Below are positions 3,119 to 22,000 of a stretch of DNA of 54,458 nucleotides, in pieces. The notes below the pieces were generated by a model. It was given only the letters and a program-made list of their open reading frames with translations, had not been told where the DNA came from and made no database searches. Source of the DNA: an uncultured Gammaproteobacteria bacterium (GTDB taxonomy: Bacteria > Pseudomonadota > Gammaproteobacteria > Steroidobacterales > Rariloculaceae); assembly GCA_964518995.1 (NCBI GenBank), contig CAZFJU010000001.1, forward strand, positions 1-54,458. The letters are read 5' to 3'. A program made the position numbers and the translations under genes. Numbering within the stretch: position 1 is the stretch's first letter; every line of letters starts with the position of its first letter.

Positions 3119-3841
3119 ATGATGAAGCCCATGAACGCGAAGCCCCACATCGCCGGGCCGATCCGGCGCCCGGCAGGTCTGTCGCCCTTGCTCGGCCGCG
3201 CTCTCGCCGCGCTGCTGATCCTCGTCGGCGCCGCACTGTCCTGGCCGGTCGCGGCCCAGCCGCGGCTTACGCAAGGAGCGCTGCTCATCTCGACCGACAA
3301 GATCGGCGATCCGAGCTGGTCGCAAACCGTGGTGCTGCTCCTCCATCACGACGCGAACGGTACGTTGGGCGTCGCGATCAACCGGCCGACTGAAGTGGCG
3401 CTCGATGAGATCGTGCCCGACCTCGGCGCAATGCCGGGGTTGGCCGACGGGATCTTCCGCGGCGGCCCGGTGCGGCCGACACAGCTCGTCTTCCTGGTCC
3501 GCAATCCGCCGGCGAATCTGCTGCGCAACGCCCCGCGGATCCTCGACGGGGTCTACGCGAGCGGGGATCTCGGCGCGCTGCCGCAGATCATCGAGACGGG
3601 CGGTGGCGAAACCCTGCGCCTCTATGCTGGCCACGTGGAATGGGCGCCGGGGCAGCTCGATCGCGAATTTGCGGAAGAGCGCTGGACCGTTACGCTCGGC
3701 TCCGCGGAGCGTGTCTTCGCTCCCAACCCGTCACAGCTGTGGCAGCGCCTGCGCAGCTCGAGCGAAGAGTTGCTCGTCGAGCGCGCGCCAGGCCTCAGCG
3801 AGGCCGAGCCGCTGCAGGCCGCTTCGTCAAATCGGCGTTGA
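3119..3841 (+). CDS. YqgE/AlgH (UPF0301) family protein with a predicted N-terminal signal peptide
   Basis: ORF 2834..3841 trimmed to ATG 3119 (MMKPMNAKPH...). The core LLISTDKIGDPSWSQTVVLLLHHDANGTLGVAINRP...FRGGPVRPTQLVFL...YAGHVEWAPGQLDREF matches the YqgE/AlgH pattern. The N-terminus LSPLLGRALAALLILVGAALSWPVAAQP looks like a Sec signal. Confidence 0.75.
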   Translation: MMKPMNAKPHIAGPIRRPAGLSPLLGRALAALLILVGAALSWPVAAQPRLTQGALLISTDKIGDPSWSQTVVLLLHHDANGTLGVAINRPTEVALDEIVPDLGAMPGLADGIFRGGPVRPTQLVFLVRNPPANLLRNAPRILDGVYASGDLGALPQIIETGGGETLRLYAGHVEWAPGQLDREFAEERWTVTLGSAERVFAPNPSQLWQRLRSSSEELLVERAPGLSEAEPLQAASSNRR

Positions 3842-4139
3842 CGCGGACCGCATCGGGCGTGCCGTCTCGACGGTCCGCACGCCTCTTCGATGACCGTCGC
3901 GGCATTGCGCTACTCGGCACCCGGAGGAGGTGGCCGTCCCTGGCCAAGTGCAGTATGCCGCCGCTATCGCACAGAGTTCTGAGACGCAGCGCACGAGCCG
4001 CGACGCCGCAGCGCCGATTGCGTCAAAAGCAGGGTTTACCCGCCCTTCTTTCTGCGGGCAAATACGCACCGAAAGCGGCCGGCAACAGGGGATTCAGTAG
4101 CGCCTGTGCGCATCTCGCGCGCTCGGCGCGCGTTGCTCG

Positions 4140-4904
4140 CTAACTACTCTCGGGCGTGCGGATCTTGTAGTTGCCGCCTTCCCCCTCCGTCAGCTCGAGC
4201 AGCCCTTCGCGTTGTGCATGCGCAAGCAAATCCGAGAAGCTTCGATAGCCGTAGTAACTTTCTGCGAAGCCGGGATAGACGCGTTTCAGCGCCTTCTTCA
4301 CCACCGACCCCCAAACAGGGTCGTACTCTTCCTCGAGTGACGCGACGGTAGTCGTCAGCCGCTCGAACGCTTCCCGCTGTTTCTCGGAGACCTGCTTCGC
4401 GCTGTGCCGCGGAGCCCGCTTCTGCTCGGCGACCAGGTTATCGTAATAGATAAACTCGTCGCAGCTCGACGCCAGCAGATCGGATGTCGAGCTGCGCACG
4501 CCGCAGCCAATCACCCTCTTGTCGTTCTCTTTGAGCTTGGATACCAGCGGCGAAAAATCGCTGTCGCCGGTAAGGAGCGCAAAGGTATCTATGTGCGCTT
4601 TCGAGTAGCAGAGGTCGATCGCATCGACCACCATGCGGATGTCGGCGCTGTTCTTACCGCTCGCCCCGGAGTGCGGTATATCGACCATCTCGAAACCGAG
4701 CATATGAAACTCGCGCATGAATTTCTGGAACCGATTCCAGTCGCAATACGCGCGCTTGAAGACGATGCGGCCGCGCTCGAGCAGACGCTTCATGACGAGC
4801 TCCATCTGGAAGCGGCCCTTGGCGCTCTGCTCGGCACCGAGCGCGAGGTTCTCGAAATCGACGAAAACGGCGATCGTCGGTTCCGAATGCGAGTTCACGT
4901 CCAT
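4140..4904 (-). CDS. NYN (LabA-like PIN-fold) nuclease domain protein with C-terminal OST-HTH/LOTUS domain
   Basis: ORF 4140..4985 trimmed to ATG 4904 (MDVNSHSEPTIAVFVDFENL...). The segment VFVDFENL...KRAYCDW...KNSADIRMVVDAIDL...FALLTGDSDFSPLVSKLKENDKRVIG is the NYN/LabA signature. The C-terminal part (WGSVVKKALKRVYPGFAESYYGYRSFSDLLAHAQREGLLEL) resembles OST-HTH. Confidence 0.8.
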   Translation of the reverse strand: MDVNSHSEPTIAVFVDFENLALGAEQSAKGRFQMELVMKRLLERGRIVFKRAYCDWNRFQKFMREFHMLGFEMVDIPHSGASGKNSADIRMVVDAIDLCYSKAHIDTFALLTGDSDFSPLVSKLKENDKRVIGCGVRSSTSDLLASSCDEFIYYDNLVAEQKRAPRHSAKQVSEKQREAFERLTTTVASLEEEYDPVWGSVVKKALKRVYPGFAESYYGYRSFSDLLAHAQREGLLELTEGEGGNYKIRTPESS

Positions 4905-5039
4905 GCTCGATGCGCCCCTTCTACTTGCGTGCATTGCGGCTGGAATCGGCATCTTCGTCGATCGATGCGATGGGTCGCAAGGCATTGTCCCGGCGTGTGG
5001 TCGAGGCCATCATACCGCCGGTGCAACAAGGAGGCCGTG

Positions 5040-5732
5040 GTGAGCGAAGCGCCGATCAAAGTCCTCTCCTCCATGGCGACGCGCGGCGTGCTCGTCGAGC
5101 TTGCGTCCGCCTACGAGCGCGCGACGAGCGCGCGCGTCGAGACGACCGCCGCCGGCGGCGTCGATCTCGCCGAGCGCCTGCGCGCCGGCGAGCCGGTCGA
5201 CGTCGTCGTGCTGGCAAGAGACGTCATCGATGCGCTCATCGCCGAAGGCCATCTGCTGCGCGGCAGCCGGGTGGATCTCGTCACGTCGCCGATCGCCGTC
5301 GCGGTGCAGGCCGGCGCACCCCATCCGAATATCGCGGACGAGGCCGGCGTCCGAGCCGCCGTCGCGGCCGCACGCTCGTTGAGTTACTCGACCGGTCCGA
5401 GCGGCCGGCATCTGGAGCAGGTTTTCGAGCGCTGGGGGCTGCTCGAGGCGATCCGGTCACGCATCATCGTGCCGCCGCCGGGCGTGCCGGTCGCTTCGCT
5501 CGTCGCGGAGGGCTCGGCCGAAATCGGCTTTCAGCAGCTCAGCGAGCTGATCGACCGCCCGGGCATCGATGTGCTCGGCCTGGTACCTGCCGAGATGCAG
5601 AGCGTCACGACGTTCTCCGGCGGCATCGGCGCGGCGTGCGCCCGGCCGGACGCCGCGCGCGCGCTGCTCGACTTCATGGTCTCGCCCGAGGTCGCGAGCA
5701 CCAAGCAACGTTACGGGCTGGCATCGGCGTAG
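5040..5732 (+). CDS. ModA-like periplasmic-binding-protein-fold substrate-binding protein, no signal peptide
   Basis: Real coding part of ORF 4404..5732. GTG starts at 5037 and 5040 sit just after AAGGAGG (5028-5034). The sequence IKVLSSMATRGVLVELA...VVVLARDVIDALIAEG...SYSTGPSGRHLEQVF...AEIGFQQLSEL is ModA/PBP2-like. The upstream part of the ORF is antisense to the NYN gene. Confidence 0.6.
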   Translation: MSEAPIKVLSSMATRGVLVELASAYERATSARVETTAAGGVDLAERLRAGEPVDVVVLARDVIDALIAEGHLLRGSRVDLVTSPIAVAVQAGAPHPNIADEAGVRAAVAAARSLSYSTGPSGRHLEQVFERWGLLEAIRSRIIVPPPGVPVASLVAEGSAEIGFQQLSELIDRPGIDVLGLVPAEMQSVTTFSGGIGAACARPDAARALLDFMVSPEVASTKQRYGLASA

Positions 5733-6499
5733 CCGGCGGCTGCGCCGCGGCGTTGACGGCGAAGTGCCGCATCGAGTGACTCGACGATGGCCGCCACCCA
5801 TAAAGGCCAATCCGCGCGCGTCACGAGCCGCTGATTGACCTCGAGCTCGAGCCCGAGATAGCGATCCGCGGGCCAGCGCTTGCGTAGAGCGGTCGTGAAG
5901 CCATCGGCGACGCCGCGATAGGGATAATTGCGTCGCACGATGGACGCGGGCGGCAGCGTGGCGCGCAGCGCTTCGCGCCATAGGGCGGCGAACGCCGCCT
6001 CGCCGGCGCGGCGAGGATCGAACAGCAGCCCGACGTCGGCGCGCCGCACCTGGCCCGCAAGCTCGGGCGTAAACGAATGTGCGGACACGTGCACCACTTG
6101 GCCGTGCGCGGCGGCCGCGGCAACGGCGCTCTCCACAGCGACGCGGTACGGTCTGTAGTGCTGCTCAACGATTGCGGCGCGCGCGGCCGCAGGCAGCGCA
6201 CGCGTGAATTCGGAGAACAACTGCGGATGGCCGAGCGATCGATTCAGATCGACGAGCAGCCGGGTCGTCTCGCCGATGAACAACGGCGCCGAGAGACGGC
6301 GTGCGAGCGCCCGCGCGACGACCGCGGCGCCTTCGTCATGGGCGCGGTGAGAATCGAGCGCGAGCGCGGCCGCCGTGCTCGCGAACAGCGGCCGATATTC
6401 GTCGGGCACCCGACGCCCGCCATGCTCGCAGCTCACGACGACTGCCGCCGCCGGCCGCCGCGCGGCAGGCTCGCGGTCAGGCTTCGAACGACCGTCCAT
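5711..6499 (-). CDS. N-formylglutamate amidohydrolase (FGase) family hydrolase
   Basis: ORF 5711..6649 trimmed to ATG 6499 (MDGRSKPD...); ATG 6511 is an alternative. The sequence VVVSCEHGGRRVPDEY...LLVDLNRS...VHVSAHSFTPEL...RADVGLLFDP...YPYRG...YLGLELEVNQ is typical of the FGase family. The start overlaps the GCS2 gene's 3' end by 23 nt. Confidence 0.75.
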   Translation of the reverse strand: MDGRSKPDREPAARRPAAAVVVSCEHGGRRVPDEYRPLFASTAAALALDSHRAHDEGAAVVARALARRLSAPLFIGETTRLLVDLNRSLGHPQLFSEFTRALPAAARAAIVEQHYRPYRVAVESAVAAAAAHGQVVHVSAHSFTPELAGQVRRADVGLLFDPRRAGEAAFAALWREALRATLPPASIVRRNYPYRGVADGFTTALRKRWPADRYLGLELEVNQRLVTRADWPLWVAAIVESLDAALRRQRRGAAAGYADASP

Positions 6500-7736
6500 C
6501 GGCAAGCGCATCGCAGAGTGAGCGATAAACGCGCACGAAGTCGCCATGCGTCGGCAGCACGCTGCCGAGCGCTCGTCGGATGCGGGTCGATAGCGAGCCG
6601 GCACGAAGGTAGTGCTCGAGAAAACGCGCGTCGACCCCGACGAACGCACCGTCGGCGGCCGCGCGGTCGATCAGATGATCCCATAGCTTCGCGACGGTCG
6701 AGCTCGTCTGGCCGAGCCCGAAAGCTTCGAGGTATTTCCGCTCGCCGATCTCGGCGCGCTCGGCATCGCGGGTGGTCAGCTCGAGCAGGCGCGCAAGCTG
6801 CCGCGTATCCCACTCCGTGAGCGACTCGAGATCGGCCCATCGCTCGTCGCACAAGCTCCTCAAGGTGCCGATGATCGCCGCTGCGAATGCGATGTCGGCG
6901 GCCGGGCACTCCTGCACATCCAGCACTCGAATCTCGATCGCCATCCGCTCGAACCGCGCGATCGCACCGCGCGCGTTCACCCATTCGCGGCGCAGGATAC
7001 CGTCGGGGTCGTGCGGCGCGAGATCGGCGTAGATCCGACCGAGCAGGCGATCTTGATATTCGTCCATCGAATGGTACGTCTCCGGCACGACATGACCGGT
7101 AATCGACGGAATCCGGGCGCAATTGCCGCGGTACGCGACCAGGCGGTTGTCCGCGATGCCGGTCAATACGCCGTCCACCGCCGGCGAGCTTGCCGCGAGG
7201 CCCGGCAGAATCGGCAGGAGCAGGCGGATCGCCGCGTGCAGCCGCGCGAACTCATCGTCGTTGGCAAACGGCAGGTTGATATGTGCGCTCTGCAGATTCG
7301 CCCAGCCGTGTCCCTTGCAGCCGAAGATGCGGTCGAACGTTTCATAGATCACGCGCGTGCCGTGCGGCCAAAGCTCGACAGTGCGCGGATCCATCCATGG
7401 ATGCATCGCGGTCGGCATCAGGCGCAGACCGTCACGCGCGAGCGCGTCGAGCCCGCAGACGACGTTGTGTTGGAACGTAGCGCCGAGCCCCGCGAGCGAC
7501 GGTTGCGGCCCGTTGCATTTCAACTCGATGACATGCAGCGCGAGCTCGTTGTTCCAAGCGACCGCGCCATTTTCCCACTCGTCCGTCAGCTCGCCGGCGA
7601 GCCCCTCGAGCAACCGGTCGGCGCACGGCACGACAGCGAGCCCGTCGGCGGCAACGATCATGTACTCGAGCTCGATCCCTACCGCCTCGAACAGGCGGTG
7701 CGGGCTGCTATGCGGTTCGGAGCTGCTTGGGGGCAT
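6477..7736 (-). CDS. Carboxylate-amine ligase, glutamate-cysteine ligase family 2 (GCS2/YbdK-like)
   Basis: ORF with ATG at 7736. Motifs seen: FEAVGIELEYMIV, NELALHVIELK, MHPW, NLQSAHINLPF, FERMAIEIRVLD. The start lies 29 nt inside the 3' end of the ATP-grasp gene. Confidence 0.8.
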   Translation of the reverse strand: MPPSSSEPHSSPHRLFEAVGIELEYMIVAADGLAVVPCADRLLEGLAGELTDEWENGAVAWNNELALHVIELKCNGPQPSLAGLGATFQHNVVCGLDALARDGLRLMPTAMHPWMDPRTVELWPHGTRVIYETFDRIFGCKGHGWANLQSAHINLPFANDDEFARLHAAIRLLLPILPGLAASSPAVDGVLTGIADNRLVAYRGNCARIPSITGHVVPETYHSMDEYQDRLLGRIYADLAPHDPDGILRREWVNARGAIARFERMAIEIRVLDVQECPAADIAFAAAIIGTLRSLCDERWADLESLTEWDTRQLARLLELTTRDAERAEIGERKYLEAFGLGQTSSTVAKLWDHLIDRAAADGAFVGVDARFLEHYLRAGSLSTRIRRALGSVLPTHGDFVRVYRSLCDALADGRSFEA

Positions 7737-9183
7737 CGACTCGTGCTCTGAAGACCTTCATGACCCGATCGTACAGCTCGTCGCCGAGCACCTCGTCCTC
7801 GACGCCATGGTCGAGATTCGGGTTGTCGTTGATTTCGATCAGCACCGGCCTCCCGTCGACGATCTTGATGTCGACGCCGTAAAGGCCGTCGCCAATCGCG
7901 TTCGCCGTCGCGAGCGCAAGCTCGACGACTTCGGCAGGCGCCTGCTCGACGGCGAGCGTCTCGGCATCGCCCTGCTTGCCGCCCGATTGCTTCGCCGCAT
8001 GGTGATAGATCTGCCAGTGTCCGCGCGCCATGAAATAACGGCATGCAAACAGCGGCGCGCGGTCGAGTATGCCGATGCGCCAGTCGAAATCCGTCGGCAG
8101 AAAGGACTGCGCGATCACGAGATCGCTGCGCGACAGAATTTTCTGCAAGCCGGCCGCGAGCTCGTCGCGCGTCTGCGCCCTGTGCACCCCTTCCGAGAAA
8201 GCGCTGTCCGGCTGCTTCAGCACACACGGCAGGCCGAGCGACGCGATGATCTCATCGGGCTTGGCGCTGTCGACGACCAGCGTCGGCGGAATCGGCAGGT
8301 TGAGCCGCTTAGCCAGCTCGAACAAGTAGACTTTGTTGCCGCAGCGGATGATCGACTCCGGGTCGTCGATCACCACGAGCCCTTCCGCGCGTGCTCGGCT
8401 CGCGAAGCGATACGTATGGTGATTGACGTTCGTTGTCTCGCGAATGAACAGCGCATCGAACTCGGCCAGCCGGCCGTAGTCGTCGCGGGTCAGGAACTGG
8501 ACGCCGAAGCCGTTCGCGCGGGCCGCGCGCTCGAGCCGCTTGAGCGCCTCGCGATTCGACGGCGGAGAACGCTCGGTATCGTTGACGAGGATCGCCAGAT
8601 CGCGCTCGTACTGCGCGCTGCGCCCGGCGCGGCCGGCCGGCCCCCGCCCCTTGAAATGCTCCTCGATCACCTCGTTCAAGAACGAGCGATGCGAGTCGGG
8701 TAGCGCGCCGACCGGAATCGGGCCGAGGCTTGCGAGCCGCCAGCGCGTGCCCTTCGCGAAGGTCGCGCGCATCAGCGGCACAGGGAACAGATTGAAAAGC
8801 GCCCGGCTCAGCTTCGCATGACGCTCGGCCAGGTTGCGCCCGAAATAGATGCTGAGCTCGAACCGTGACGAAGAGATATCGTGCAGCGAACGCTGAGTGA
8901 GCTCGTCGATGTCATCGGCGGGCCGAAACAGGGAACGCGATTTCATGTCCTGGATCGTCGTCACGCTCGGCATCGCACGATGCCCGCGCGCCGTCGCGAG
9001 CAAGGACACGTAGTAGCCGACGCTCTGGTATCGATACGAATCGCAAAGATTAAACACCCGCAGCCGCCGGCGCTCGCTGTAGCGCGGATCGCGCACATAG
9101 GCGTCCGCGCTGACGACGGCCGCCGTGCCGATGTCGAGCGGCCACTCCGCTGGGTCGTCTACGACGATGAGCGCGGACTTCAT
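7708..9183 (-). CDS. RimK-like ATP-grasp ligase with RLAN-type (RimK-like ATP-grasp N-terminal) domain
   Basis: N-terminal part: VFNLCDSYRYQSVGYYVSLLATARGHRAMPSVTTIQDM, which I recognise as the RLAN domain. C-terminal part: GNKVYLFELAKRLNLPIPPT...LPCVLKQPDSAFSEGV...VIAQSFLPTDFDWRIGIL...GVDIKIVDGRPVLIEINDNPNL, a RimK-type ATP-grasp. Its ATG and the upstream gene's TGA share 4 nt (ATGA). Confidence 0.85.
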   Translation of the reverse strand: MKSALIVVDDPAEWPLDIGTAAVVSADAYVRDPRYSERRRLRVFNLCDSYRYQSVGYYVSLLATARGHRAMPSVTTIQDMKSRSLFRPADDIDELTQRSLHDISSSRFELSIYFGRNLAERHAKLSRALFNLFPVPLMRATFAKGTRWRLASLGPIPVGALPDSHRSFLNEVIEEHFKGRGPAGRAGRSAQYERDLAILVNDTERSPPSNREALKRLERAARANGFGVQFLTRDDYGRLAEFDALFIRETTNVNHHTYRFASRARAEGLVVIDDPESIIRCGNKVYLFELAKRLNLPIPPTLVVDSAKPDEIIASLGLPCVLKQPDSAFSEGVHRAQTRDELAAGLQKILSRSDLVIAQSFLPTDFDWRIGILDRAPLFACRYFMARGHWQIYHHAAKQSGGKQGDAETLAVEQAPAEVVELALATANAIGDGLYGVDIKIVDGRPVLIEINDNPNLDHGVEDEVLGDELYDRVMKVFRARVDAPKQLRTA

Positions 9184-9962
9184 GGAGGGTCGGCAAGGTC
9201 TGCCGGGGCGGACCCGGCCGGCTCAATGAGGAGCAGGTTGGCGTCGTAGGTGACGATGCCGAGCAGCACGGCGTTGATCAGCCGCTGCAGGCGCACGGCG
9301 TAGAGCCCGCTCTGCGCGAACGGGTTCCGGGCGTAGGGATCGGCCACCAGAACTTCCCGCTGCTCGGGCAGATACCCCGTCAGCACGACGAAGTGGCCGG
9401 TCGGCTCGCCGGCAATGTCGTCGTCCAGGTTCGAGTGCGGCAATTCCCGCATGGATCGATACAAATACGTGGCCGAAAGCCCGGTGATCAGAGGGCCGCG
9501 GCGCAACAGCCGCCGCAGGAGCCTGGACTCGAGATCGCGCAGCCGCAGGCGCCCCCCGCGGTCAAGAAACTCGACATACCCGCGAGTCGCGAGACGCAAC
9601 TTGGCCGTAGGCTTGGCGCGAGCCTGCGCGATGAGCTTCGCCCGCATCGCCGCGGCTTGCAAGCCGAACCAAGTCGGATCGAACAAGGCCAGATTATACG
9701 TGTAGATAGTCACTCGATATCCGCGTTCGAGCGCATGATTAGCGAGAAATACGTCGAGCGTGCCGCCATCATCGAGCATGCGGATATCCGCGATGACCTG
9801 GTCGAGCGCGATTCGGTCCGCGTAGTGACGATAAACGCCGTGCAGGCACGCCGGGCCGCATGAAACGTCGTCAGGCTGCGGCTCGACCCGCAAGCCGAAG
9901 CTCGCTTCATCGAGCGGGCGTCCAGCAAGGCGCCGGGTATAGGGTGGTTCCCGGCCGCTCAT
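9180..9962 (-). CDS. Papain-fold cysteine peptidase, C39-like (stand-alone, cytoplasmic)
   Basis: Contains Q-x4-SCGPACL (QPDDVSCGPACLHGVY), GHFVVLTGY and VLVADPYA. These correspond to the Gln/Cys, His and Asp motifs of C39-type peptidases. No signal peptide and no fused ABC-transporter domains. Confidence 0.75.
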   Translation of the reverse strand: MSGREPPYTRRLAGRPLDEASFGLRVEPQPDDVSCGPACLHGVYRHYADRIALDQVIADIRMLDDGGTLDVFLANHALERGYRVTIYTYNLALFDPTWFGLQAAAMRAKLIAQARAKPTAKLRLATRGYVEFLDRGGRLRLRDLESRLLRRLLRRGPLITGLSATYLYRSMRELPHSNLDDDIAGEPTGHFVVLTGYLPEQREVLVADPYARNPFAQSGLYAVRLQRLINAVLLGIVTYDANLLLIEPAGSAPADLADPP

Positions 9963-9980
9963 GAAGGCCCGCGATGCCGG

Positions 9981-10217
9981 TCAAAGCGCGCTGTCGAGAT
10001 CGTCTTCGTCGTAATCGTCCCAGTCCGAAAGCAATTCACGCAGATTGCGCTGCTCGTTGCGCAGCTCGACGCGCTGACGCGCGGGCAAATGCCGTGATCC
10101 GCTCTCCGTGTCGAGACCGGCGCCGTGCAGCATCGCATCGTCGAGCTCATCTTCGTCGCCATTGAAAATCGGGAAATCACTGAAGTCGTCTTCGACTTCC
10201 GGTTTGGACTTACGCAT
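9981..10217 (-). CDS. Small hyper-acidic protein, 78 aa (function unknown; first gene of the ligase/peptidase operon)
   Basis: ORF 9981..10358 trimmed to ATG 10217, with GAGGAG about 8 nt upstream. Sequence: MRKSKPEVEDDFSDFPIFNGDEDELDDAMLHGAGLDTESGSRHLPARQRVELRNEQRNLRELLSDWDDYDEDDLDSAL. It has 24 Asp/Glu in 78 residues by my count. Its stop lies 18 nt before the peptidase start. It resembles small acidic proteins with an RR..E.L.E.R.LRE motif seen in gammaproteobacteria (from memory only). Confidence 0.6.
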   Translation of the reverse strand: MRKSKPEVEDDFSDFPIFNGDEDELDDAMLHGAGLDTESGSRHLPARQRVELRNEQRNLRELLSDWDDYDEDDLDSAL

Positions 10218-10356
10218 CCTAACGCTCCTCGTCGCCGCCACTGCCAAACGTCGATGCCGGTGTGAGACAGACTGAACCGGACTCGTTTTGTATCGAACAC
10301 ATTCGTTTCGGCCCGGTGCGCAAGCTGCGCCTCGCAGGGCGCCTGCAAGCTGCGCC

Positions 10357-10384
10357 ACTATAGGCCGACCGTAGCGGGTGTCAA
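10357..10384 (-). promoter_or_regulatory. Near-consensus sigma70 promoter for the acidic-protein/peptidase/ligase operon
   Basis: The minus strand reads TTGACA (10384-10379), a 16-nt spacer, then TATAGT (10362-10357). The predicted transcription start is near 10350, giving a leader of about 130 nt before ATG 10217. Confidence 0.6.
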
Positions 10385-10592
10385 GATCAATAACTACCTA
10401 TAATTCAACCGGTTAACCAGACTCATCCCGCGCGAGCTCGATCGGCCGACGGCCTGCGGCACCGGACGCCGGCAGGCGCCGGGAGGCAGCGGCCGCCAGC
10501 GGACGCTCGGCGCGCGACTGCCGGCGTGCCGTGCTTATCCGCATCCGCGGTAGAGCATTCGAGCGTAGAATGCGGTGGGTATTTGGAGGTTC

Positions 10593-11882
10593 ATGATGAC
10601 CAAGACCGCGACTTTGAGCTGCGACGGCAAGAGTATCGAGCTGCCCGTCGTCGTCGGCACGGAGCAGGAGACCGCCGTCGACATCACCGCGCTTCGCGCC
10701 AGCACGGGGCTGATCACGCTCGACAATGGCTACGCCAACACCGGCGCGTGCCGCAGCTCGATCACCTTCATAGACGGCGACCGCGGCATTTTGCGCTATC
10801 GCGGCTACCCGCTCGAGGAGCTCGCGGTGAAATCGACGTTCGTCGAGACGGCCTATCTGCTGATCTTCGGCGAGCTGCCGACGGCCACGCAGCTCAACGA
10901 CTTCCGCGCGCTGCTCGTCGAGCACGAGCTGATCCACGAAGACATGCGCCATCACTTCGACGGCTTCCCGCCGAACTCGCCGCCGATGGCGATCCTCTCG
11001 GCGATGATCAATGCGGTCGGCTGCTTCGAGCCGGACTTCATGCAGCCCGAAGACAACGACCACTTCATGAAGCCCTCTGCCCGGCTCATGAGCAAGGTGC
11101 GGACCATCGCCGCCGCGAGTTACCGCAAATCCATCGGCAAGCCGGTGAACTATCCGCGGCCGGACCTGCGCTACACGGCAAATTTCCTGCATATGCTGTT
11201 CTCGAAGCCGCACAAGCCCTACGAGCCCGACGATGTGGTCGTCGACGCTCTGGATCGGCTCCTGTTGCTGCACGCGGATCATGAGCAGAATTGCTCCACG
11301 TCGACGGTCCGCATGGTCGGATCGTCGCAGGCGAATCTGTATGCATCGGTGGCGGCTGGCGTATGCGCGTTGTGGGGACCGCTCCATGGGGGCGCCAACG
11401 TTGCGGTGATCGATATGCTGGAGAAGCTGCTCGAGAGTGGCGAGCCGCTCGATAAGTTTGTCGAGCGCGTCAAGAAACGGGACTCGGGCGTCCGGCTGAT
11501 GGGCTTTGGCCACCGCGTGTACAAGAACTTCGACCCGCGCGCGAAGATCATCAAGGCGGCCTCCGACGCCCTGCTCGACAAGCTTGGCATTCATGATCCC
11601 CTGCTCGATCTCGCACAGCGTCTCGAAGAGGTCGCACTCTCCGACCCGTACTTCATCGAACGTAAACTCTATCCTAACGTGGACTACTACAGCGGGATCA
11701 TCATGCGGGCGATCGGCATCCCCACCAACATGTTCACGGTGATCTTTGCGATCGGCCGTCTGCCCGGGTGGATGGCGCACTGGCGCGAGGTCCGCATCGG
11801 CGAGTCCCGCATCGATCGGCCGCGGCAGGTGTACGTCGGCCCCACCCAGCGCGGCTACGTGCCGATCGGCCAGCGCGCCTGA
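10593..11882 (+). CDS. gltA: Citrate synthase (type II)
   Basis: ORF 10575..11882 with start taken at ATG 10593; GGAGG lies at 10585-10589. Motifs seen: ILRYRGYP, LLLHADHEQNCSTSTVR, GPLHGGAN, GFGHRVYKNFDPRA, NVDYYSG. Confidence 0.95.
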   Translation: MMTKTATLSCDGKSIELPVVVGTEQETAVDITALRASTGLITLDNGYANTGACRSSITFIDGDRGILRYRGYPLEELAVKSTFVETAYLLIFGELPTATQLNDFRALLVEHELIHEDMRHHFDGFPPNSPPMAILSAMINAVGCFEPDFMQPEDNDHFMKPSARLMSKVRTIAAASYRKSIGKPVNYPRPDLRYTANFLHMLFSKPHKPYEPDDVVVDALDRLLLLHADHEQNCSTSTVRMVGSSQANLYASVAAGVCALWGPLHGGANVAVIDMLEKLLESGEPLDKFVERVKKRDSGVRLMGFGHRVYKNFDPRAKIIKAASDALLDKLGIHDPLLDLAQRLEEVALSDPYFIERKLYPNVDYYSGIIMRAIGIPTNMFTVIFAIGRLPGWMAHWREVRIGESRIDRPRQVYVGPTQRGYVPIGQRA

Positions 11883-11902
11883 CGTCCGCGTCTTCGCCTT
11901 CA

Positions 11903-13303
11903 ATGAAGCTCCTCATGGTCTGTGCGGAGTACGCTCCGCTCGCGAAGACCGGCGGCCTCGCGGACGCCGTCGCCGGATTGGCGGCCGCGCTCGCGCGCCG
12001 CGGCCACGACGTGCGGACCGTGATGCCGGCATACGGCGGGCCGCTTCCGGCGGGCTTCGTGCTCGAGCCGCAAGCGCCCGCGGACGGCATCGCGTATGCC
12101 GTGGCTCGGCCGCCGGACGACGGCCCGCCGATTTATCTCGTCGAGTCCGATGCGATCGGGCACGACGGCCGCATCTACACGCTGGACGATCGGGATGCGG
12201 CCCGCTTCTGGGCTTTCAACCGCGCGGCGCTCGCGCTCGCCGGCGTCTCCGAATGGCGCGCCGATGTCTTGCACTGCCACGACTGGCATGCGGCGCTCGT
12301 GCCTCCGCTCGCCCGCCGCGGCGCGCTCGCCGCGACACCCTCGGTCCTGACGCTGCACAACGCCGGCTATCAGGGGCGCTTCCCGCGCCATGCCTTGCCG
12401 GAGGACGCCCAGACCGTGCTCGATGTGCTCGACGATCCTGCGCGTGGCGACGCCGATCACGTGAATTTCCTCGCGCTCGGCATTCGTCACGCGGATCGGG
12501 TCACCACGGTCAGCCCGAGCTACGCGCGCGAGCTGCGCAGCCCGGAGCTCGGCATGGGGCTCGATGCGCTCCTCGATGTCCGCGGCGACGACTTCGTCGG
12601 CATCCTCAACGGCGTGGACTACGCCTTGTGGAGCCCGGAATCCGATCCTTTCATCGGCCGCCGCTATCCGCGCAGCGACCGGTCCGGGAAGCGGCAGCTG
12701 AAAGCCGACTTGAGCGCCGAGCTCGGGCTCGCGAGCGATGCGCCGCTGGTCGGCGCCGTCACGCGTCTCGTCGAGCAAAAGGGCATCGACCTCCTGGTCG
12801 ACGCGCTGCCCACGTTGCTCGAGCGGACACGGGCCTCCTTCGTGATTCTCGGCAGCGGCGAGCCGCAGCTCGAGACGGCGTTGGCGACGCTCGCCGACAT
12901 GCACCGCAGCCGGGTCGTATTCCGCAACGGCTACGACGAGTCGCTCGCGCATCGGATCATCGGCGGCAGCGATCTGCTCGTCGTGCCGTCGCGCTATGAA
13001 CCGTGCGGGCTCACCCAGCTTTACGCAATGCGCTACGGCACCGTGCCGGTGGTACGTAAGACCGGCGGGCTGGCCGATACCGTCACGCATTACGACCCCG
13101 CGACGGGCAAAGGTACCGGCAGCGTGTTCGAGCATGCCGACGTGACGGGCCTCGTCTGGGGTCTATCGACCGCGCTCGACTGGTTCGAGGACGAGCGCGC
13201 TTGGCAGCGACTCGTCGATAACGCGCTCGGCGCCGATTTCTCGTGGGAGCGCCAGAGCGCCGAGTACGAGGCGCTGTATCGCCGTCTAACAGCTGACCCG
13301 TAG
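11903..13303 (+). CDS. glgA: Glycogen synthase (ADP-glucose type)
   Basis: ORF 11768..13303 trimmed to ATG 11903. The sequence MKLLMVCAEYAPLAKTGGLADAV...HCHDWHA...LHNAGYQG...SRYEPCGLTQLYAMRYGT.PVVR.TGGLADTV matches GlgA. The start lies 20 nt after the gltA stop. Confidence 0.93.
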   Translation: MKLLMVCAEYAPLAKTGGLADAVAGLAAALARRGHDVRTVMPAYGGPLPAGFVLEPQAPADGIAYAVARPPDDGPPIYLVESDAIGHDGRIYTLDDRDAARFWAFNRAALALAGVSEWRADVLHCHDWHAALVPPLARRGALAATPSVLTLHNAGYQGRFPRHALPEDAQTVLDVLDDPARGDADHVNFLALGIRHADRVTTVSPSYARELRSPELGMGLDALLDVRGDDFVGILNGVDYALWSPESDPFIGRRYPRSDRSGKRQLKADLSAELGLASDAPLVGAVTRLVEQKGIDLLVDALPTLLERTRASFVILGSGEPQLETALATLADMHRSRVVFRNGYDESLAHRIIGGSDLLVVPSRYEPCGLTQLYAMRYGTVPVVRKTGGLADTVTHYDPATGKGTGSVFEHADVTGLVWGLSTALDWFEDERAWQRLVDNALGADFSWERQSAEYEALYRRLTADP

Positions 13304-13437
13304 CCCCTGACGAACCGCGCGCCGCCTGGCACCCATCTTGCTTTCGTCACGGCAGGGGCGTCTCCGTGTCAGCCGTGCTGCGGACCGGCACGGAGATGCC
13401 AATATCGCCGGAATCGGCATCTCAGGGGAAACAAGCC

Positions 13438-14199
13438 ATGGAAGGACAGCGCACGCACCACACGCACCGCGGCGGCCTGCGTCTCGGCACGCTCGCATCG
13501 TTCATCGTGCTCGGCACGGGTCTCGCCGCCTGCGATACCGGGTCCGACCTCGAAGGGCAGCCGCAGCCGTTGGGCTTTGCCGGGCAACCCGAGCCGGGTC
13601 TCGATCCGGAGCTCGCCGATATCGACATCGACGCGCTCTCGAGCGAGACGGGCACGGCGGCGCGCAACGAGGCTGCTGCACGTGAATCGAATGATGACGA
13701 TCCGGATGCAGCGTTCGGCACGCAGCTCGCGGCCGAGGATTCCGCCGATGCTTCGGCGGCGCTCGAGCCCACGCAGGGTCAGCAGGCGCGCGGCGACGCC
13801 TCGTTCATCGAGACGGAAAACGGCGTGACTGTGATGGTTTCGATGACGGGACTCACCCCCGGACCGCACGGTATCCATCTGCACGAGAACGGCGATTGCT
13901 CTGGCCCCGCCGCCGAGGCGGCCGGCGATCATTTCGACCCGAATGGCTCGCCGCATGGCGCGCCGTCCGATACCGACCAGGAGCGGCATGCCGGCGACCT
14001 CGGCAATATCGAAGCGGACTCCTCGGGAAACGCCGAGCTCGAGATCGAGATTGAAGGGCTGACCATCGGAGGCGAGCGCGGTGTCGCCAGCAAGGCGCTG
14101 ATCGTGCACGCGGACGAGGACGACCTCATGAGCCAGCCGAGCGGTGAATCCGGCGATCCGGTGGCGTGCGGTGTCGTCGAGGTCACGGCACGCGGCTGA
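13438..14199 (+). CDS. sodC: Cu/Zn superoxide dismutase, predicted lipoprotein with a long acidic linker
   Basis: ORF 13366..14199 trimmed to ATG 13438. Signal and lipobox: LASFIVLGTGLAAC. SOD core: GPHGIHLHENGDC...GDHFDP...HAGDLGN...ALIVHADEDD...GDPVACGVV. Confidence 0.85.
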   Translation: MEGQRTHHTHRGGLRLGTLASFIVLGTGLAACDTGSDLEGQPQPLGFAGQPEPGLDPELADIDIDALSSETGTAARNEAAARESNDDDPDAAFGTQLAAEDSADASAALEPTQGQQARGDASFIETENGVTVMVSMTGLTPGPHGIHLHENGDCSGPAAEAAGDHFDPNGSPHGAPSDTDQERHAGDLGNIEADSSGNAELEIEIEGLTIGGERGVASKALIVHADEDDLMSQPSGESGDPVACGVVEVTARG

Positions 14200-14211
14200 C
14201 GCCTGTGTGTG

Positions 14212-15663
14212 TCATGCGAGGCGTTCGAAGCGCCCTGCTCGACGCCTCGCATCGATCGCCAAATCGACGCCGATATCGCGCCAGGCGAAGCGCCACGCCC
14301 AATTACCCCCGGTGTGGCCCGGCCGATTCATACGCGCCTCGCTGCCGAGGCTGAGCAGGTCTTGGAGCGGCACGATCGCAAGGCGCGCTTGCGAGCCGTA
14401 CGCCGCGTCGAGAAGCGCGTCCGGCATCTGCGGCTCGCCGCCGAAATGGTGCAGCACGCGCGCTCGCGAATCGGCGTCCAGAGTCGCGTACCAACCGACC
14501 AGCGTGTCGTTATCGTGCGTCCCCGTATAGACCACCTGGTTCTCGTGATGAGCGTCCGGCCCATGGGGATTGTCCGGTAAGCCATCGAACGCAAACTGCA
14601 GCACCGCCATCCCCGGCAGCTCGAACCGATCGCGCAGCGCGCGCACCTCATCGGTGATCAAGCCGAGATCCTCGGCGACCAAAGGGACGCGGCCGAGCCG
14701 CCGACCGAGCGTCTCCAGAAGCTTCGCGCCGGGTGCCGGCCGCCACCGGCCGACGCGCGCCGTGTCGGCTGAAGCCGGCACTTCCCAATAAGCCTCCAGT
14801 GCGCGGAAGTGATCGATGCGGAGCAGATCGAAGCGTTTGAGCTCGTGCTCGAGTCGGCGCATCCACCAATCGAAGCCCGAGCGCTCGTGCGCGGGCCAAT
14901 CATAGAGCGGGTTGCCCCATAGCTGGCCGTCCTCGTTGAAGTAATCGGGCGGCACGCCCGCTACGGCGGTCGGCCGGCCATCTTGGTCCACGCGAAAGAG
15001 CTCCGGCTCCCACCACACTTCGACGCTGTCGAGATCGACATAGAACGGCAGATCACCGAACAGATGCACACCGCGCCCGTTCGCATAGCGCTTTAGCGAA
15101 GACCACGAGAGCTCGAACAGGTACTGACAAAAAACGACGGCGCGAAATCGCTCGCGCTCCGCGGCCAACAGCGCCGGCAGCGCACCGGAGCGCCGCTGCC
15201 GGTATTCATCCGGCCATATCCACCACGGGGCGCCGCCGTGCCGGGCACGCAGCACCTCGAACGACGCATACGGCAACAACCACCGGCGCTGGCGCCGGGC
15301 AAACGCCGCCAGCAAGCTGCGCTGCGCAGGGCTTGCGAGCTCGCAAAACCGACGATAGACGTCCACCGGACGTTCGTGCAGGGCGTCGAACGGCGTATCT
15401 CGCGGCAGCTCGTCCAGCTCGGCGAGGCGCTTCGCATCGAGCAGGCGCAAATCGCCGGCGAATGCCGAGCGCAACGTGTACGGCGAGCCGTGCATGTCCG
15501 GGGGGCCGAGCGGTAAGGTCTGCCAGACGGAGTAACCGCCATCGACGAGCCAATCGATGAAGCGGAGCGCCTCATTGCCGAGTGCACCGTTCGCACCGTC
15601 CCCGGGCAATGAGCTCGGATGCAGCAGGACGCCGACCCGACGGCGGTCGAGAATTGCGCTCAC
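14212..15663 (-). CDS. malQ: 4-alpha-glucanotransferase (amylomaltase, GH77)
   Basis: GTG start at 15663. Motifs seen: GVLLHPSSLPG, WQTLPLGP, SPY, LLRIDHFR, VAEDLG, YTGTHDN, PLQDLL. The start lies 10 nt downstream of the glgC stop. Confidence 0.92.
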   Translation of the reverse strand: MSAILDRRRVGVLLHPSSLPGDGANGALGNEALRFIDWLVDGGYSVWQTLPLGPPDMHGSPYTLRSAFAGDLRLLDAKRLAELDELPRDTPFDALHERPVDVYRRFCELASPAQRSLLAAFARRQRRWLLPYASFEVLRARHGGAPWWIWPDEYRQRRSGALPALLAAERERFRAVVFCQYLFELSWSSLKRYANGRGVHLFGDLPFYVDLDSVEVWWEPELFRVDQDGRPTAVAGVPPDYFNEDGQLWGNPLYDWPAHERSGFDWWMRRLEHELKRFDLLRIDHFRALEAYWEVPASADTARVGRWRPAPGAKLLETLGRRLGRVPLVAEDLGLITDEVRALRDRFELPGMAVLQFAFDGLPDNPHGPDAHHENQVVYTGTHDNDTLVGWYATLDADSRARVLHHFGGEPQMPDALLDAAYGSQARLAIVPLQDLLSLGSEARMNRPGHTGGNWAWRFAWRDIGVDLAIDARRRAGRFERLA

Positions 15664-15673
15664 GGGCCGGGGC

Positions 15674-16948
15674 TCAGCTTCGGGCCCCGCCCCGCAGCCC
15701 AGCGACCATGTCGCGGGTCACCAGGACGACGCCTTGCTCACTGACATGAAACCGGCGCCGGTCGGCTTCCCGGTCGCGGCCGATGATGGTGCCGTCCGGC
15801 ACGACGACGTGCTCATCGATGATCGCGCGGCCGATGTGGCAGTCGCGCCCGATCGATACGTTCGGCAGCACCACCGCGCGATACACGAGCGATCGCTCCG
15901 CGACGCGGACATTGAATGACAGCAGCGACTCGCGCACCGTGGCTCCGGACACGATGCAGCCGCCCGCGACCATCGAGTTGATCGCAGCCCCGCGGCGCCC
16001 GTCCTCATCGAGCACGAACTTCGCGCTCGGCACTTGCTCCTGGTACGTCCAGATCGGCCACGCATCGTCGTACAGGTTCAACTCCGGGCTCACGTGCACG
16101 AGCTCCATATTCGCGTGATAGTACGCGTCCACCGTGCCGACATCGCGCCAATATGCTTGGGCCTTGGTCTCGATATCCTGAAACGGATACGCGAACACGC
16201 GCGCGTCGTTGATCGCATCGGGAATCACATCGCGGCCAAAATCATGCCGCGTATTTTCCCGCGCGGCGTTTCGCTCGAGCCGTTCGCGCAAGAAGGCCGG
16301 CTCTACGACATAGATACCCATTGAAACGAGCGCGATGCCATCCCGGCCCGGCATCGAGCGCGGATTCGACGGCTTCTCGTCGAACCCAATCACACGGTGG
16401 GTCGGGTCCACGCTCATCACGCCAAACTCGTGCGCCTCCTCGACCGGCACCTGCACGCCGCCGATCGTCAGATCCGCACGACTCTCCTTATGAAATGCAA
16501 TCAACGGACCGTAGTCCATCTTGTAGACATGATCGCCGGCGAGCACGAGCACGGTTTCCGGGCGATGCTGATCGATAATGTCGAGGTTCTGATATACCGC
16601 GTCAGCCGTGCCGCGGTACCACCATTCGCCATGCTGCTGTTGCGCCGGCACGATATCGACGAACTCGCCAAGCTCGCCGTGCAGATACCCCCAGCCGCGG
16701 CGCACATGCTGAATCAGCGACTGAGCTTTGTACTGAGTCAGAATGGAGATCTGCCGGATCCCGGAATTGACGCAGTTCGACAGGGAAAAGTCGATGATGC
16801 GGTATTTGCCGCCAAAAGGAGTCGCCGGCTTCGCGCGATGGTCCGTCAGTTGCATGAGCCGCTGACCGCGGCCGCCGGCCATGATGACAGCCATCGTGCG
16901 GCGCGTCAGCTGACTCACGACGCGATGCGCGAGAGGTCGTTTGATCAT
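15674..16948 (-). CDS. glgC: Glucose-1-phosphate adenylyltransferase
   Basis: ORF 15674..17521 trimmed to ATG 16948, with GGAG upstream. The sequence MIKRPLAHRVVSQLTRRTMAVIMAGGRGQRLMQLTDHRAKPATPFGGKYRIIDFSLSNCVNSGI...LTQYKAQSL...WYRGTADAV matches GlgC. Confidence 0.93.
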   Translation of the reverse strand: MIKRPLAHRVVSQLTRRTMAVIMAGGRGQRLMQLTDHRAKPATPFGGKYRIIDFSLSNCVNSGIRQISILTQYKAQSLIQHVRRGWGYLHGELGEFVDIVPAQQQHGEWWYRGTADAVYQNLDIIDQHRPETVLVLAGDHVYKMDYGPLIAFHKESRADLTIGGVQVPVEEAHEFGVMSVDPTHRVIGFDEKPSNPRSMPGRDGIALVSMGIYVVEPAFLRERLERNAARENTRHDFGRDVIPDAINDARVFAYPFQDIETKAQAYWRDVGTVDAYYHANMELVHVSPELNLYDDAWPIWTYQEQVPSAKFVLDEDGRRGAAINSMVAGGCIVSGATVRESLLSFNVRVAERSLVYRAVVLPNVSIGRDCHIGRAIIDEHVVVPDGTIIGRDREADRRRFHVSEQGVVLVTRDMVAGLRGGARS

Positions 16949-17073
16949 GCAGCCGCTCCGATTCTCTGGTCGAGTATACGTTGCCTGCGAGATATGAGTC
17001 GACGCGGTCGACCGAACCTCCGCGCCGCTCCGGCCAAAAGCCTCATCCGGCCGCGGACTCGTCCGACACGGCT

Positions 17074-19146: not shown

Positions 19147-19159
19147 GGCTCCGGATACG

Positions 19160-21775: not shown

Positions 21776-22000
21776 CGGGTCGGTTCCATCCAGCCGGCCA
21801 ATAGAAATGAGGGCACGCGCCGCAGCCGTCAGGCGAACCCTGCAGCGGCAGCACGGACGCATCGAATACGCGCAGAAGCAACATGTGGGCCAGCATCCCA
21901 GCCCAGCCGCAAGCTTAACCTATCGATACGCTTTGGGAGGCGCTGCCGATCACGTATCGCAAGAGCCGATCTGTAACTGACATTCCGCGGAGGAGGCTTT

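Follow-up and report, generated by a model that had tools for sequence, protein, structure and literature searches.

A gammaproteobacterial RLAN-ATP-grasp/GCS2 amidoligase operon and the recurrent association of PA3496-like mini-proteins with RimK-clade ligases

Background

Described systems that combine an ATP-grasp ligase and a peptidase around an acidic protein include RimK/S6 glutamylation (with the Pseudomonas rimABK system), for which both the S6 acceptor and the addition of Glu are known, and the tubulin tail code, in which ATP-grasp ligases (TTL/TTLL) and carboxypeptidases (MATCAP/VASH, CCP) work on an acidic tail with aromatic residues. We studied a five-gene amidoligase/peptidase operon from an uncultured Gammaproteobacteria bacterium of the Rariloculaceae (contig CAZFJU010000001.1; "the window" is the whole stretch analysed, 54,458 nt). 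In order of transcription the operon encodes a small acidic protein (the mini-protein), a C39-like Cys peptidase, a ligase made of an RLAN domain and an ATP-grasp module, a GCS2 carboxylate-amine ligase and an FGase-family amidohydrolase. Labels L001 to L143 denote stretches from relatives.

The window operon resembles the RimK/S6 system in its same-clade ATP-grasp ligase (rimK_fam was the best NCBIfam match), in the acidic protein partner and in the associated peptidase, and a mini-protein relative is encoded directly after a canonical rimB-rimK pair. It differs from that system in the extra N-terminal RLAN domain of its ligase and in the coupling of this ligase to a GCS2 enzyme, a C39-like Cys peptidase and an FGase. 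The tubulin tail code comes to mind because one mini-protein relative has its gene next to those for a bacterial MATCAP homologue and an ATP-grasp ligase; the likeness is no more than an analogy, the window operon having no MATCAP and its candidate acceptor being a 78-aa bacterial protein. A third related system is the glutathione/phytochelatin pathway (GshA, GshB and phytochelatin synthase), where a GCS-fold ligase is likewise followed by an ATP-grasp ligase and a papain-fold enzyme. The window proteins, however, did not match GshA, GshB or PF05023 at curated thresholds, and the glutathione pathway lacks both FGase and RLAN.

Neighbourhoods that combine RLAN-ATP-grasp, GCS2, FGase and papain-like peptidase genes were reportedly predicted by Iyer, Abhiman, Burroughs and Aravind (Mol Biosyst, 2009), and the RLAN family of Pfam is said to derive from that work. 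The neighbourhoods predicted there reportedly share their domain families with the window operon, and likewise the concept of amidoligases combined with peptidases in one operon. Passages of PMC4431377 and PMC10318531 cite the 2009 study for amidoligases and GNAT-DUF3335 fusions. The locus described here is a lineage-specific variant (core, FGase and mini-protein) of this computationally predicted kind. Searches of the full-text literature turned up no experiments on this system, RLAN or the bacterial operons with MATCAP and ATP-grasp genes, and the searchable literature reported no substrate, product or phenotype for any member of the module, in agreement with the initial annotation, whose author knew of no experimentally defined product.

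PA3496-like mini-proteins beside RimK-clade ligases

What is new here is the recurrent association of PA3496-like mini-proteins with three operon architectures that contain RimK-clade ligases, a link that the initial annotation had overlooked. The mini-protein of the window scored 21.4 bits with the NCBIfam model PA3496_fam (NF046101), for which the cut-off is 22, and a profile built from its own family reached members that score 18.6-24.7 on the same model, the remote relative P0307 passing at 24.7. The wider family comprised 36 representatives of about 60-155 aa, mostly 70-90 aa, with the consensus RxARQRxE..RE.RWLRxQLxDWDD[WY]D.

Besides the window operon and its close relatives, L091 and L100 encode a divergent mini-protein subfamily ahead of a C39-RLAN-GCS2 operon that is itself divergent, the RLAN protein being only 49% identical. 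The gene for P0307 precedes an operon of FGase, a MATCAP homologue (PF08014) and a GSH-S/RimK-type ATP-grasp ligase (L082-84), which is a different ligase/peptidase system from that of the window. P0300, a 70-aa DWDDWD protein, directly follows a RimB-like Zn_protease (PF05618) and a canonical RimK (Rimk_N plus RimK, 221 bits; L143 2-1472). Altogether, a RimK-clade ligase with a peptidase was found in 4 of about 14 roughly independent contexts of the PA3496-like family, and by a rough estimate a random gene would be that near to a ligase of this kind in well under 1% of cases. The comparison of these two figures is good evidence that the PA3496-like family is functionally linked to RimK-clade ligases, a link that does not in itself prove a substrate role. 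It suggests that the mini-protein is a partner or an acceptor of these ligases.

The mini-protein itself was well conserved among its 24 homologues, with 20 invariant columns and with all indels in frame. Conserved parts were the N-terminal MRKSK (MRKxK over the 24 homologues), a helix PARQRVELRNEQxxLRxxLSDWDDY and an acidic tail, and the invariant pattern over the whole set was PARQRxELRxEQ..L...LSDWxDY. The C-terminus was variable, ending usually in Leu (DSAL, DTKL or similar), with no conserved GG, and Cys was absent from the protein. Genes of the same 78, 260 and 491 aa were called by an independent gene caller on a public contig of identical sequence. The pattern of conservation marks the small open reading frame (ORF) as a real gene.

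Neighbourhood counts were made at species level on the best 80 loci among the at least 586 species that carry the ligase (one genome per species). The small ORF was present in 15 of these 80 genome loci, all of them close gammaproteobacterial relatives, and also in a few divergent metagenomic lineages, so that the question raised in the initial annotation, whether the small ORF is always present, is answered in the negative. Within its own clade it was always located directly upstream of the C39-like gene, and it kept this position though its upstream neighbour varied, being either gltA (window, L003/4 and L008) or a cluster with genes for a lysine-2,3-aminomutase (LAM)-like protein and a GNAT (see Flanking genes).

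Two known small proteins were compared with the mini-protein. The LysW/LysX system similarly has a small acidic protein with a Trp-containing tail (EDWGE versus DWDDY) and a RimK-family ATP-grasp ligase, and LysX was the second-best NCBIfam match of the window ligase. That match, however, reached 44 bits against a cut-off of 276, and the operon has no kinase, reductase or aminotransferase. A LysW-type carrier was rejected for the mini-protein, which lacks Cys, and therefore a zinc-finger domain, as well as a conserved C-terminal Glu. The likeness to Pup-type ligation put forward in the initial annotation also had to be given up: the tail does not end in GG[QE], and the carboxylate-amine ligase matches GCS2, not the PafA/Dop families of Pup ligases.

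A repeated neighbour of the small acidic family was mgtE, in a same-strand upstream or a divergent position (L082, L085, L086, L088 and L090), and in L089 and L090 the gene for the small protein was convergent on tamB. These neighbours may relate to the label "envelope integrity" that NCBI gives to the PA3496 family. The operon at L082 6001-10404 (also in L083, L084 and L088) contains FGase, MATCAP and ATP-grasp genes and an unannotated 72-aa ORF, with mgtE upstream. A tblastn search of plasmids with a member of the small family gave no match, and the literature on PA3496 or PA1345 mentioned them only as entries in expression tables.

The amidoligase core in other bacteria

Homologues of the RLAN-ATP-grasp ligase numbered at least 8000 at E<=1e-10, the best 120 being at least 70% identical. 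The gammaproteobacterial ligases were 50-59% identical to those of Bacteroidota, Desulfobacterota, Planctomycetota, Fibrobacterota, Verrucomicrobiota and Acidobacteriota, and carriers of the module include Legionella, Bacteroidota, Desulfobacterota, Planctomycetota and Fibrobacterota.

Gene order around the ligase was highly conserved. The C39-like gene was directly upstream of it in 75 of the 80 loci, and GCS2 was present in 77 (two of the three absences were contig ends) and directly downstream of the ligase in 76. Of the 69 loci whose downstream sequence was long enough, 48 had FGase, which was adjacent in 46. Clustering of the flanking ORFs over the 80 loci revealed no conserved neighbour beyond these four enzymes. 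From these occurrence counts, the conserved unit is C39-like plus RLAN-ATP-grasp plus GCS2, with FGase as a frequent fourth member, and the arrangement is far from chance. The five-gene set proposed in the initial annotation therefore stands for the order C39-like/RLAN-ATP-grasp/GCS2 (75-77 of 80), and has to be relaxed for FGase and for the small ORF, given the counts above.

Paralogous arrangements were also seen. Legionella has a version composed of RimK-family, GCS2 and FGase genes. In Azospirillum brasilense Sp7 p1 (L140 4775-7482) the RLAN ligase is preceded by a fusion of GNAT with DUF3335 (C39-like), with no GCS2, and in P. aeruginosa (L138 6902-8491) a solitary RLAN-ATP-grasp paralogue has ggt and the genes of a Glu/Asp ABC transporter as neighbours.

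Predicted families of the four enzymes

Pfam assignments were judged against gathering scores and NCBIfam assignments against equivalog or curated cut-offs. All four enzymes passed the Pfam gathering scores in the profile hidden Markov model searches, and the RLAN, GCS2, FGase and C39-like families named in the initial annotation were confirmed. They are predicted to be members of these families and not orthologues of RimK, YbdK, HutG or any other characterised enzyme.

The RLAN domain of the ligase (PF14401) scored 156.4 bits against a cut-off of 25 and is followed by the ATP-grasp module at residues 211-460. Within the RLAN motif FNLCxSYxYQxxGYYVSLLAxARGH, Cys47 was invariant and His68 was present in at least 90% of the sequences, a set that spans phyla and includes the paralogue from P. 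aeruginosa (residues 47-68 correspond to window 8980-9045). This conservation suggests that the RLAN domain might be catalytic and not merely substrate-binding. A search of PDB sequences with the RLAN profile gave nothing below E 0.5, and single-sequence PDB searches with GCS2 and the ligase gave nothing informative.

The NCBIfam matches of the ligase were rimK_fam (2.2e-12), LysX (1.2e-11) and MptN (4.5e-11), each below its equivalog cut-off, which places it, by sequence, in the RimK/LysX/MptN/GshB clade. The test for a RimK orthologue failed with every model (TIGR00768, 46.9 versus 143.4 bits; NF007764, 16.3 versus 331; Pfam RimK, 19.1 versus 21). Hence the parallel with RimK first drawn for this operon is good for the ATP-grasp clade and not for orthology. 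Residues K323, E450 and N452 of the ATP-grasp module (motif LIEINDNPN) were invariant in 12 homologues and, from the family motif, would be the ATP/Mg-binding Lys and the E-x-N motif.

GCS2 (PF04107) scored 81.4 bits against a cut-off of 21, with profile positions 2-282 of 291 matched. NCBIfam put it close to YbdK but far under the cut-off of that model (TIGR02050, 42.2 versus 176.4), and every gshA model was far under its cut-off. The FGase (PF05013) scored 89.3 bits against 28.9 and was put close to HutG, again far under the equivalog cut-off (TIGR02017, 17.4 versus 278.75); no hut genes were present near it, and its nearest solved relative was the uncharacterised Atu2144 (2odf, 1.9e-17).

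The peptidase passed two C39 models, PF13529 (Peptidase_C39_2, 30.9 versus 24) and PF03412 (Peptidase_C39, 25.6 versus 22). Residues Q29, C35, H190 and D208 were invariant in 22 homologues, and a profile alignment placed Q-x5-C and H...DP on the catalytic motifs of the C39 (PEP) domain of ComA, relative to which and to other C39 domains the protein carries an insertion of about 85 residues. Its AlphaFold2 model had a predicted local distance difference test score (pLDDT) of 78 and a predicted template modelling score (pTM) of 0.80. The top Foldseek match was the phytochelatin-synthase-like Alr0975 of Nostoc (template modelling score, TM, 0.43/0.50), with the C39 domain of PCAT1 on a par; both fold matches were in the TM range 0.4-0.5. 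Pfam gave no match of the peptidase to phytochelatin synthase (PF05023, C83) at E<=0.01. For a phytochelatin synthase identity, which was considered, the support goes no further than the generic papain fold; by sequence the protein is closest to C39 domains. The model is consistent with a cytoplasmic papain-fold Cys peptidase whose likeness to Alr0975 goes no further than that fold.

The peptidase resembles the C39 leader peptidases of bacteriocin ABC exporters and of those for peptides synthesised on ribosomes and modified after translation (RiPPs) in its Pfam membership and its Q/C/H/D set, and these are its closest solved relatives by sequence. It differs from them in being stand-alone and predicted to be cytoplasmic, in its insertion, and in having neither an ABC transporter nor a neighbour with a GG motif. 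A small ORF next to a C39-family peptidase and an ATP-grasp gene also resembles RiPP loci (PMC8939145). The operon could then be a RiPP or graspetide cluster, with the small ORF as precursor, the ATP-grasp enzyme as macrocyclase and the C39 peptidase removing a double-glycine leader. We consider this hardly credible. The mini-protein has no conserved GG motif, no ABC transporter or export gene was present in the neighbourhood, the ATP-grasp belongs to the RimK/LysX/GshB clade and carries RLAN, and no other ATP-grasp family matched it better. Moreover, the supposed precursor is absent from 65 of the 80 loci, and its conserved region is C-proximal and its variable region N-terminal, the reverse of a leader-core layout. 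With the presence of the precursor, the leader-core layout and the ATP-grasp clade all failing, this reading is largely refuted.

Possible function of the operon

The family assignments support the idea, already present in the initial annotation, of two ATP-dependent amide-forming ligases working with two amide-cleaving enzymes. Our preferred reading, which we put forward tentatively, is that the operon is a cytoplasmic writer/eraser, which would attach glutamate-type residues to an acidic acceptor and take them off again. From gene context, the co-transcribed 78-aa protein with its DWDDY tail would serve in this lineage as acceptor or obligate partner.

From the chemistry of the families, GCS2 would activate a side-chain (gamma- or beta-) carboxylate and join it to an amine, as gamma-glutamyl-type ligases do, and the RimK-clade ATP-grasp would add alpha-linked glutamate to a carboxylate, as do RimK, MptN and CofF. 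The FGase-type enzyme would hydrolyse a terminal N-acyl-glutamate bond, removing the last Glu, and the papain-fold Cys peptidase would cut or transfer the built peptide through a thioester. Together the enzymes would assemble a short peptide with Glu on a carboxylate acceptor and take it apart again; in phyla without the small ORF the acceptor would be encoded elsewhere or be a small molecule. The mini-protein is favoured as acceptor or partner because of the context evidence and because the hydrolases of all three operon types (C39, MATCAP and RimB-like) come from families that act on polypeptides.

Several observations weigh against the writer/eraser reading. Sixty-five of the 80 genome loci with the core had no such small ORF within 8 kb, and the mini-protein family is variable at its extreme C-terminus, where the Glu-Glu of S6 is lacking. 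No ligase was near in about two thirds of the contexts of the small-protein family; the neighbours there were TamB, SurA/DsbA-like, dCache, DUF432, MFS, permease and other genes. The succession of GCS2 and an ATP-grasp ligase also has precisely the logic by which glutathione is made, and the known substrates of FGases are small molecules. The AlphaFold2 model of the RLAN-ATP-grasp ligase, made with 12 close homologues, was unusable (pLDDT 40).

Some of these points are explained by a close rival, itself plausible though we would not call it probable, in which the operon makes a free small peptide. GCS2 would form a gamma-glutamyl-X dipeptide, which the ATP-grasp ligase would lengthen, probably by Glu, in the way that gamma-Glu-Cys is extended by GshB. 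Cleavage or transpeptidation of the product would fall to the papain-fold enzyme, in the manner of phytochelatin synthase or a glutathione hydrolase, the FGase would recycle the terminal Glu, and the small ORF would either have a regulatory role or be a neighbour without relation to the pathway. The adjacency of a GCS-fold and an ATP-grasp ligase, the occurrence of the core without the small ORF and the small N-acyl-glutamates on which the FGase family acts all agree with such a scheme, as does the best fold match of the peptidase, Alr0975, a glutathione-cleaving enzyme. The paralogous systems also speak for it: the one in Azospirillum swaps GCS2 for GNAT fused to the C39-like DUF3335, paralleling the GNAT plus RimK-like synthesis of N-acetylaspartylglutamate (NAAG) and N-acetylglutaminylglutamine amide (NAGGN), and that in P. 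aeruginosa adjoins ggt and the Glu/Asp ABC transporter. On the other side, the phytochelatin-synthase likeness is generic (TM 0.43-0.5, no PF05023 match, and a sequence closest to C39 domains), and the scheme neither accounts for the recurrence of the small acidic family beside three RimK-clade ligase operons nor gives the extra RLAN domain a role.

The unusual conservation of the ligase (50-59% identity between phyla) and the occurrence of the core without the small ORF would also fit another target, the ligases modifying a conserved cellular protein encoded elsewhere (e.g., a ribosomal one, as in RimK/S6) and the mini-protein being a modulator, that is, a substrate mimic or an activator. In Pseudomonas, the accessory proteins RimA and RimB modulate RimK, and a rimB-rimK context with a mini-protein relative was seen here (L143). 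That the invariant part of the mini-protein is the internal helix with DWDDY and not the C-terminus points in the same direction. No candidate target was found in the conserved neighbourhoods, however, and the need for GCS2 and FGase would have no explanation, so that we regard a target encoded elsewhere as improbable.

The writer/eraser reading of the window operon can be extended to the whole family, and in this form it is more doubtful and on balance unlikely. PA3496-like DWDD[YW] proteins would be dedicated acceptors or carriers for RimK-clade ligases. In the window operon, GCS2 would branch the acidic tail of the 78-aa protein, RLAN-ATP-grasp would extend it, and FGase and the C39-like peptidase would trim and clip it, respectively; the sister operons would apply MATCAP or RimB-like peptidases to their own family member. 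If true, this would be a bacterial counterpart of the glutamylation/detyrosination code of tubulin tails or, alternatively, a new way of making a small acidic peptide on a protein template. Modification of the mini-protein would mean that bacteria have a protein-modification or carrier-protein system of a new kind, and would assign a function to RLAN, to MATCAP in bacteria, to the PA3496 family and to the FGase subgroup found here. If the mini-protein is not modified, the operon probably makes a gamma-glutamyl peptide, which would also be new chemistry. The window offers a compact version of the module under a single strong promoter, with the co-transcribed mini-protein as a testable candidate acceptor.

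Operon structure, promoter and leader

All five minus-strand ORFs were confirmed at the coordinates first assigned to them, and the description of one promoter ahead of five tightly packed genes proved exact in every gap and overlap (Table 1). The small ORF and the C39-like gene are separated by an 18-nt gap, the C39-like and ligase genes share an ATGA overlap, and the ligase/GCS2 and GCS2/FGase pairs overlap by 29 nt and 23 nt, respectively. The FGase gene has an alternative ATG start 12 nt upstream of the ATG at MDGRS. Long hydrophobic segments were absent from all five proteins, which are therefore probably cytoplasmic.

Table 1 Features of the amidoligase/peptidase operon in the window
Feature	Position (nt)	Strand	Characteristics
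Small acidic ORF	9981-10217	-	78 aa; Asp + Glu 24/78; isoelectric point 4.1
C39-like Cys peptidase gene	9180-9962	-	260 aa
RLAN + RimK/GshB-clade ATP-grasp ligase gene	7708-9183	-	491 aa; ATP-grasp module at about residues 211-460
RLAN domain of the ligase	8671-9105	-	residues 27-171; PF14401, 5.5e-46
GCS2 carboxylate-amine ligase gene	6477-7736	-	419 aa; PF04107, 9.3e-23
FGase-family amidohydrolase gene	5711-6499	-	262 aa from the ATG at MDGRS; PF05013, 5.2e-25
Sigma-70-type promoter TTGACA-16-TATAGT	10384-10357	-	11/12 consensus positions
5' leader	10218-10351	-	about 135 nt; Shine-Dalgarno (SD) GAGGAG ahead of the small ORF; conserved blocks in close relatives

The promoter block CTTGACA...CCTATAGTGGC was invariant in 7 close relatives and was kept in 18 of the 21 aligned wider relatives, with gltA or the GNAT gene upstream alike. 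Internal terminators gave no signal in the operon beyond shuffle expectation. The five genes were thus shown to form an operon co-transcribed from one conserved promoter.

The idea of a riboswitch or attenuator in the leader was given up for want of support: an Rfam scan of window 3500-12500 gave no match, the folding z-score of 0.12 indicated a stability not above that of shuffled sequence, and RNAalifold, applied to 20 leaders, showed an invariant 5-bp anti-SD-like pairing and nothing else, with no covariation. A defence-system reading of the locus was also left without support by PADLOC, which gave zero matches.

Just upstream of the -35 box, a block TAAC..C.GGATTT..CTAG.CATTTC was conserved in a clade about 72% identical to the window, and the corresponding region of the window (10385-10420) has diverged from it. 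The block could be a regulator-binding site.

Flanking genes

No transporter, regulator or Rfam element was found within the operon, and the window flanks are housekeeping: agmatine deiminase-like, AlgH-like, NYN, solute-binding protein, gltA and glycogen-cluster genes. Both observations agree with the initial annotation, which had described an operon with no transporter or regulator between unrelated neighbours.

A second amidoligase cluster, also overlooked at first, is located between gltA and the small ORF in most relatives, on the strand of the operon. It consists of genes for a LAM-like radical SAM protein, two Ddl-like ATP-grasp ligases, an HDAC-like amidohydrolase and a GNAT, and was carried by L001 (2996-8751), L002, L005-L007, L009-L015, L020, L094, L096, L102, L113, L116, L118, L122, L123, L125 and L130. 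It was absent from the window (between 10385 and 10574), L003/L004 and L008, which have lost the cluster and kept the small ORF and its promoter.

Next to the FGase gene, the window has a convergent gene for an SBP_bac_11 solute-binding protein (5037-5732, positive strand; initially described as modA-like), and the 3' ends of the two genes overlap by 22 nt. This gene was present only in the window, L002, L096 and L118; in the other relatives the NYN gene directly follows FGase. At the opposite side, gltA adjoins a glycogen metabolism cluster (window 11768-21862) with glgA-like, 4-alpha-glucanotransferase, glgC-like, isoamylase-type debranching enzyme and DUF3417 phosphorylase genes, an ordinary housekeeping context.

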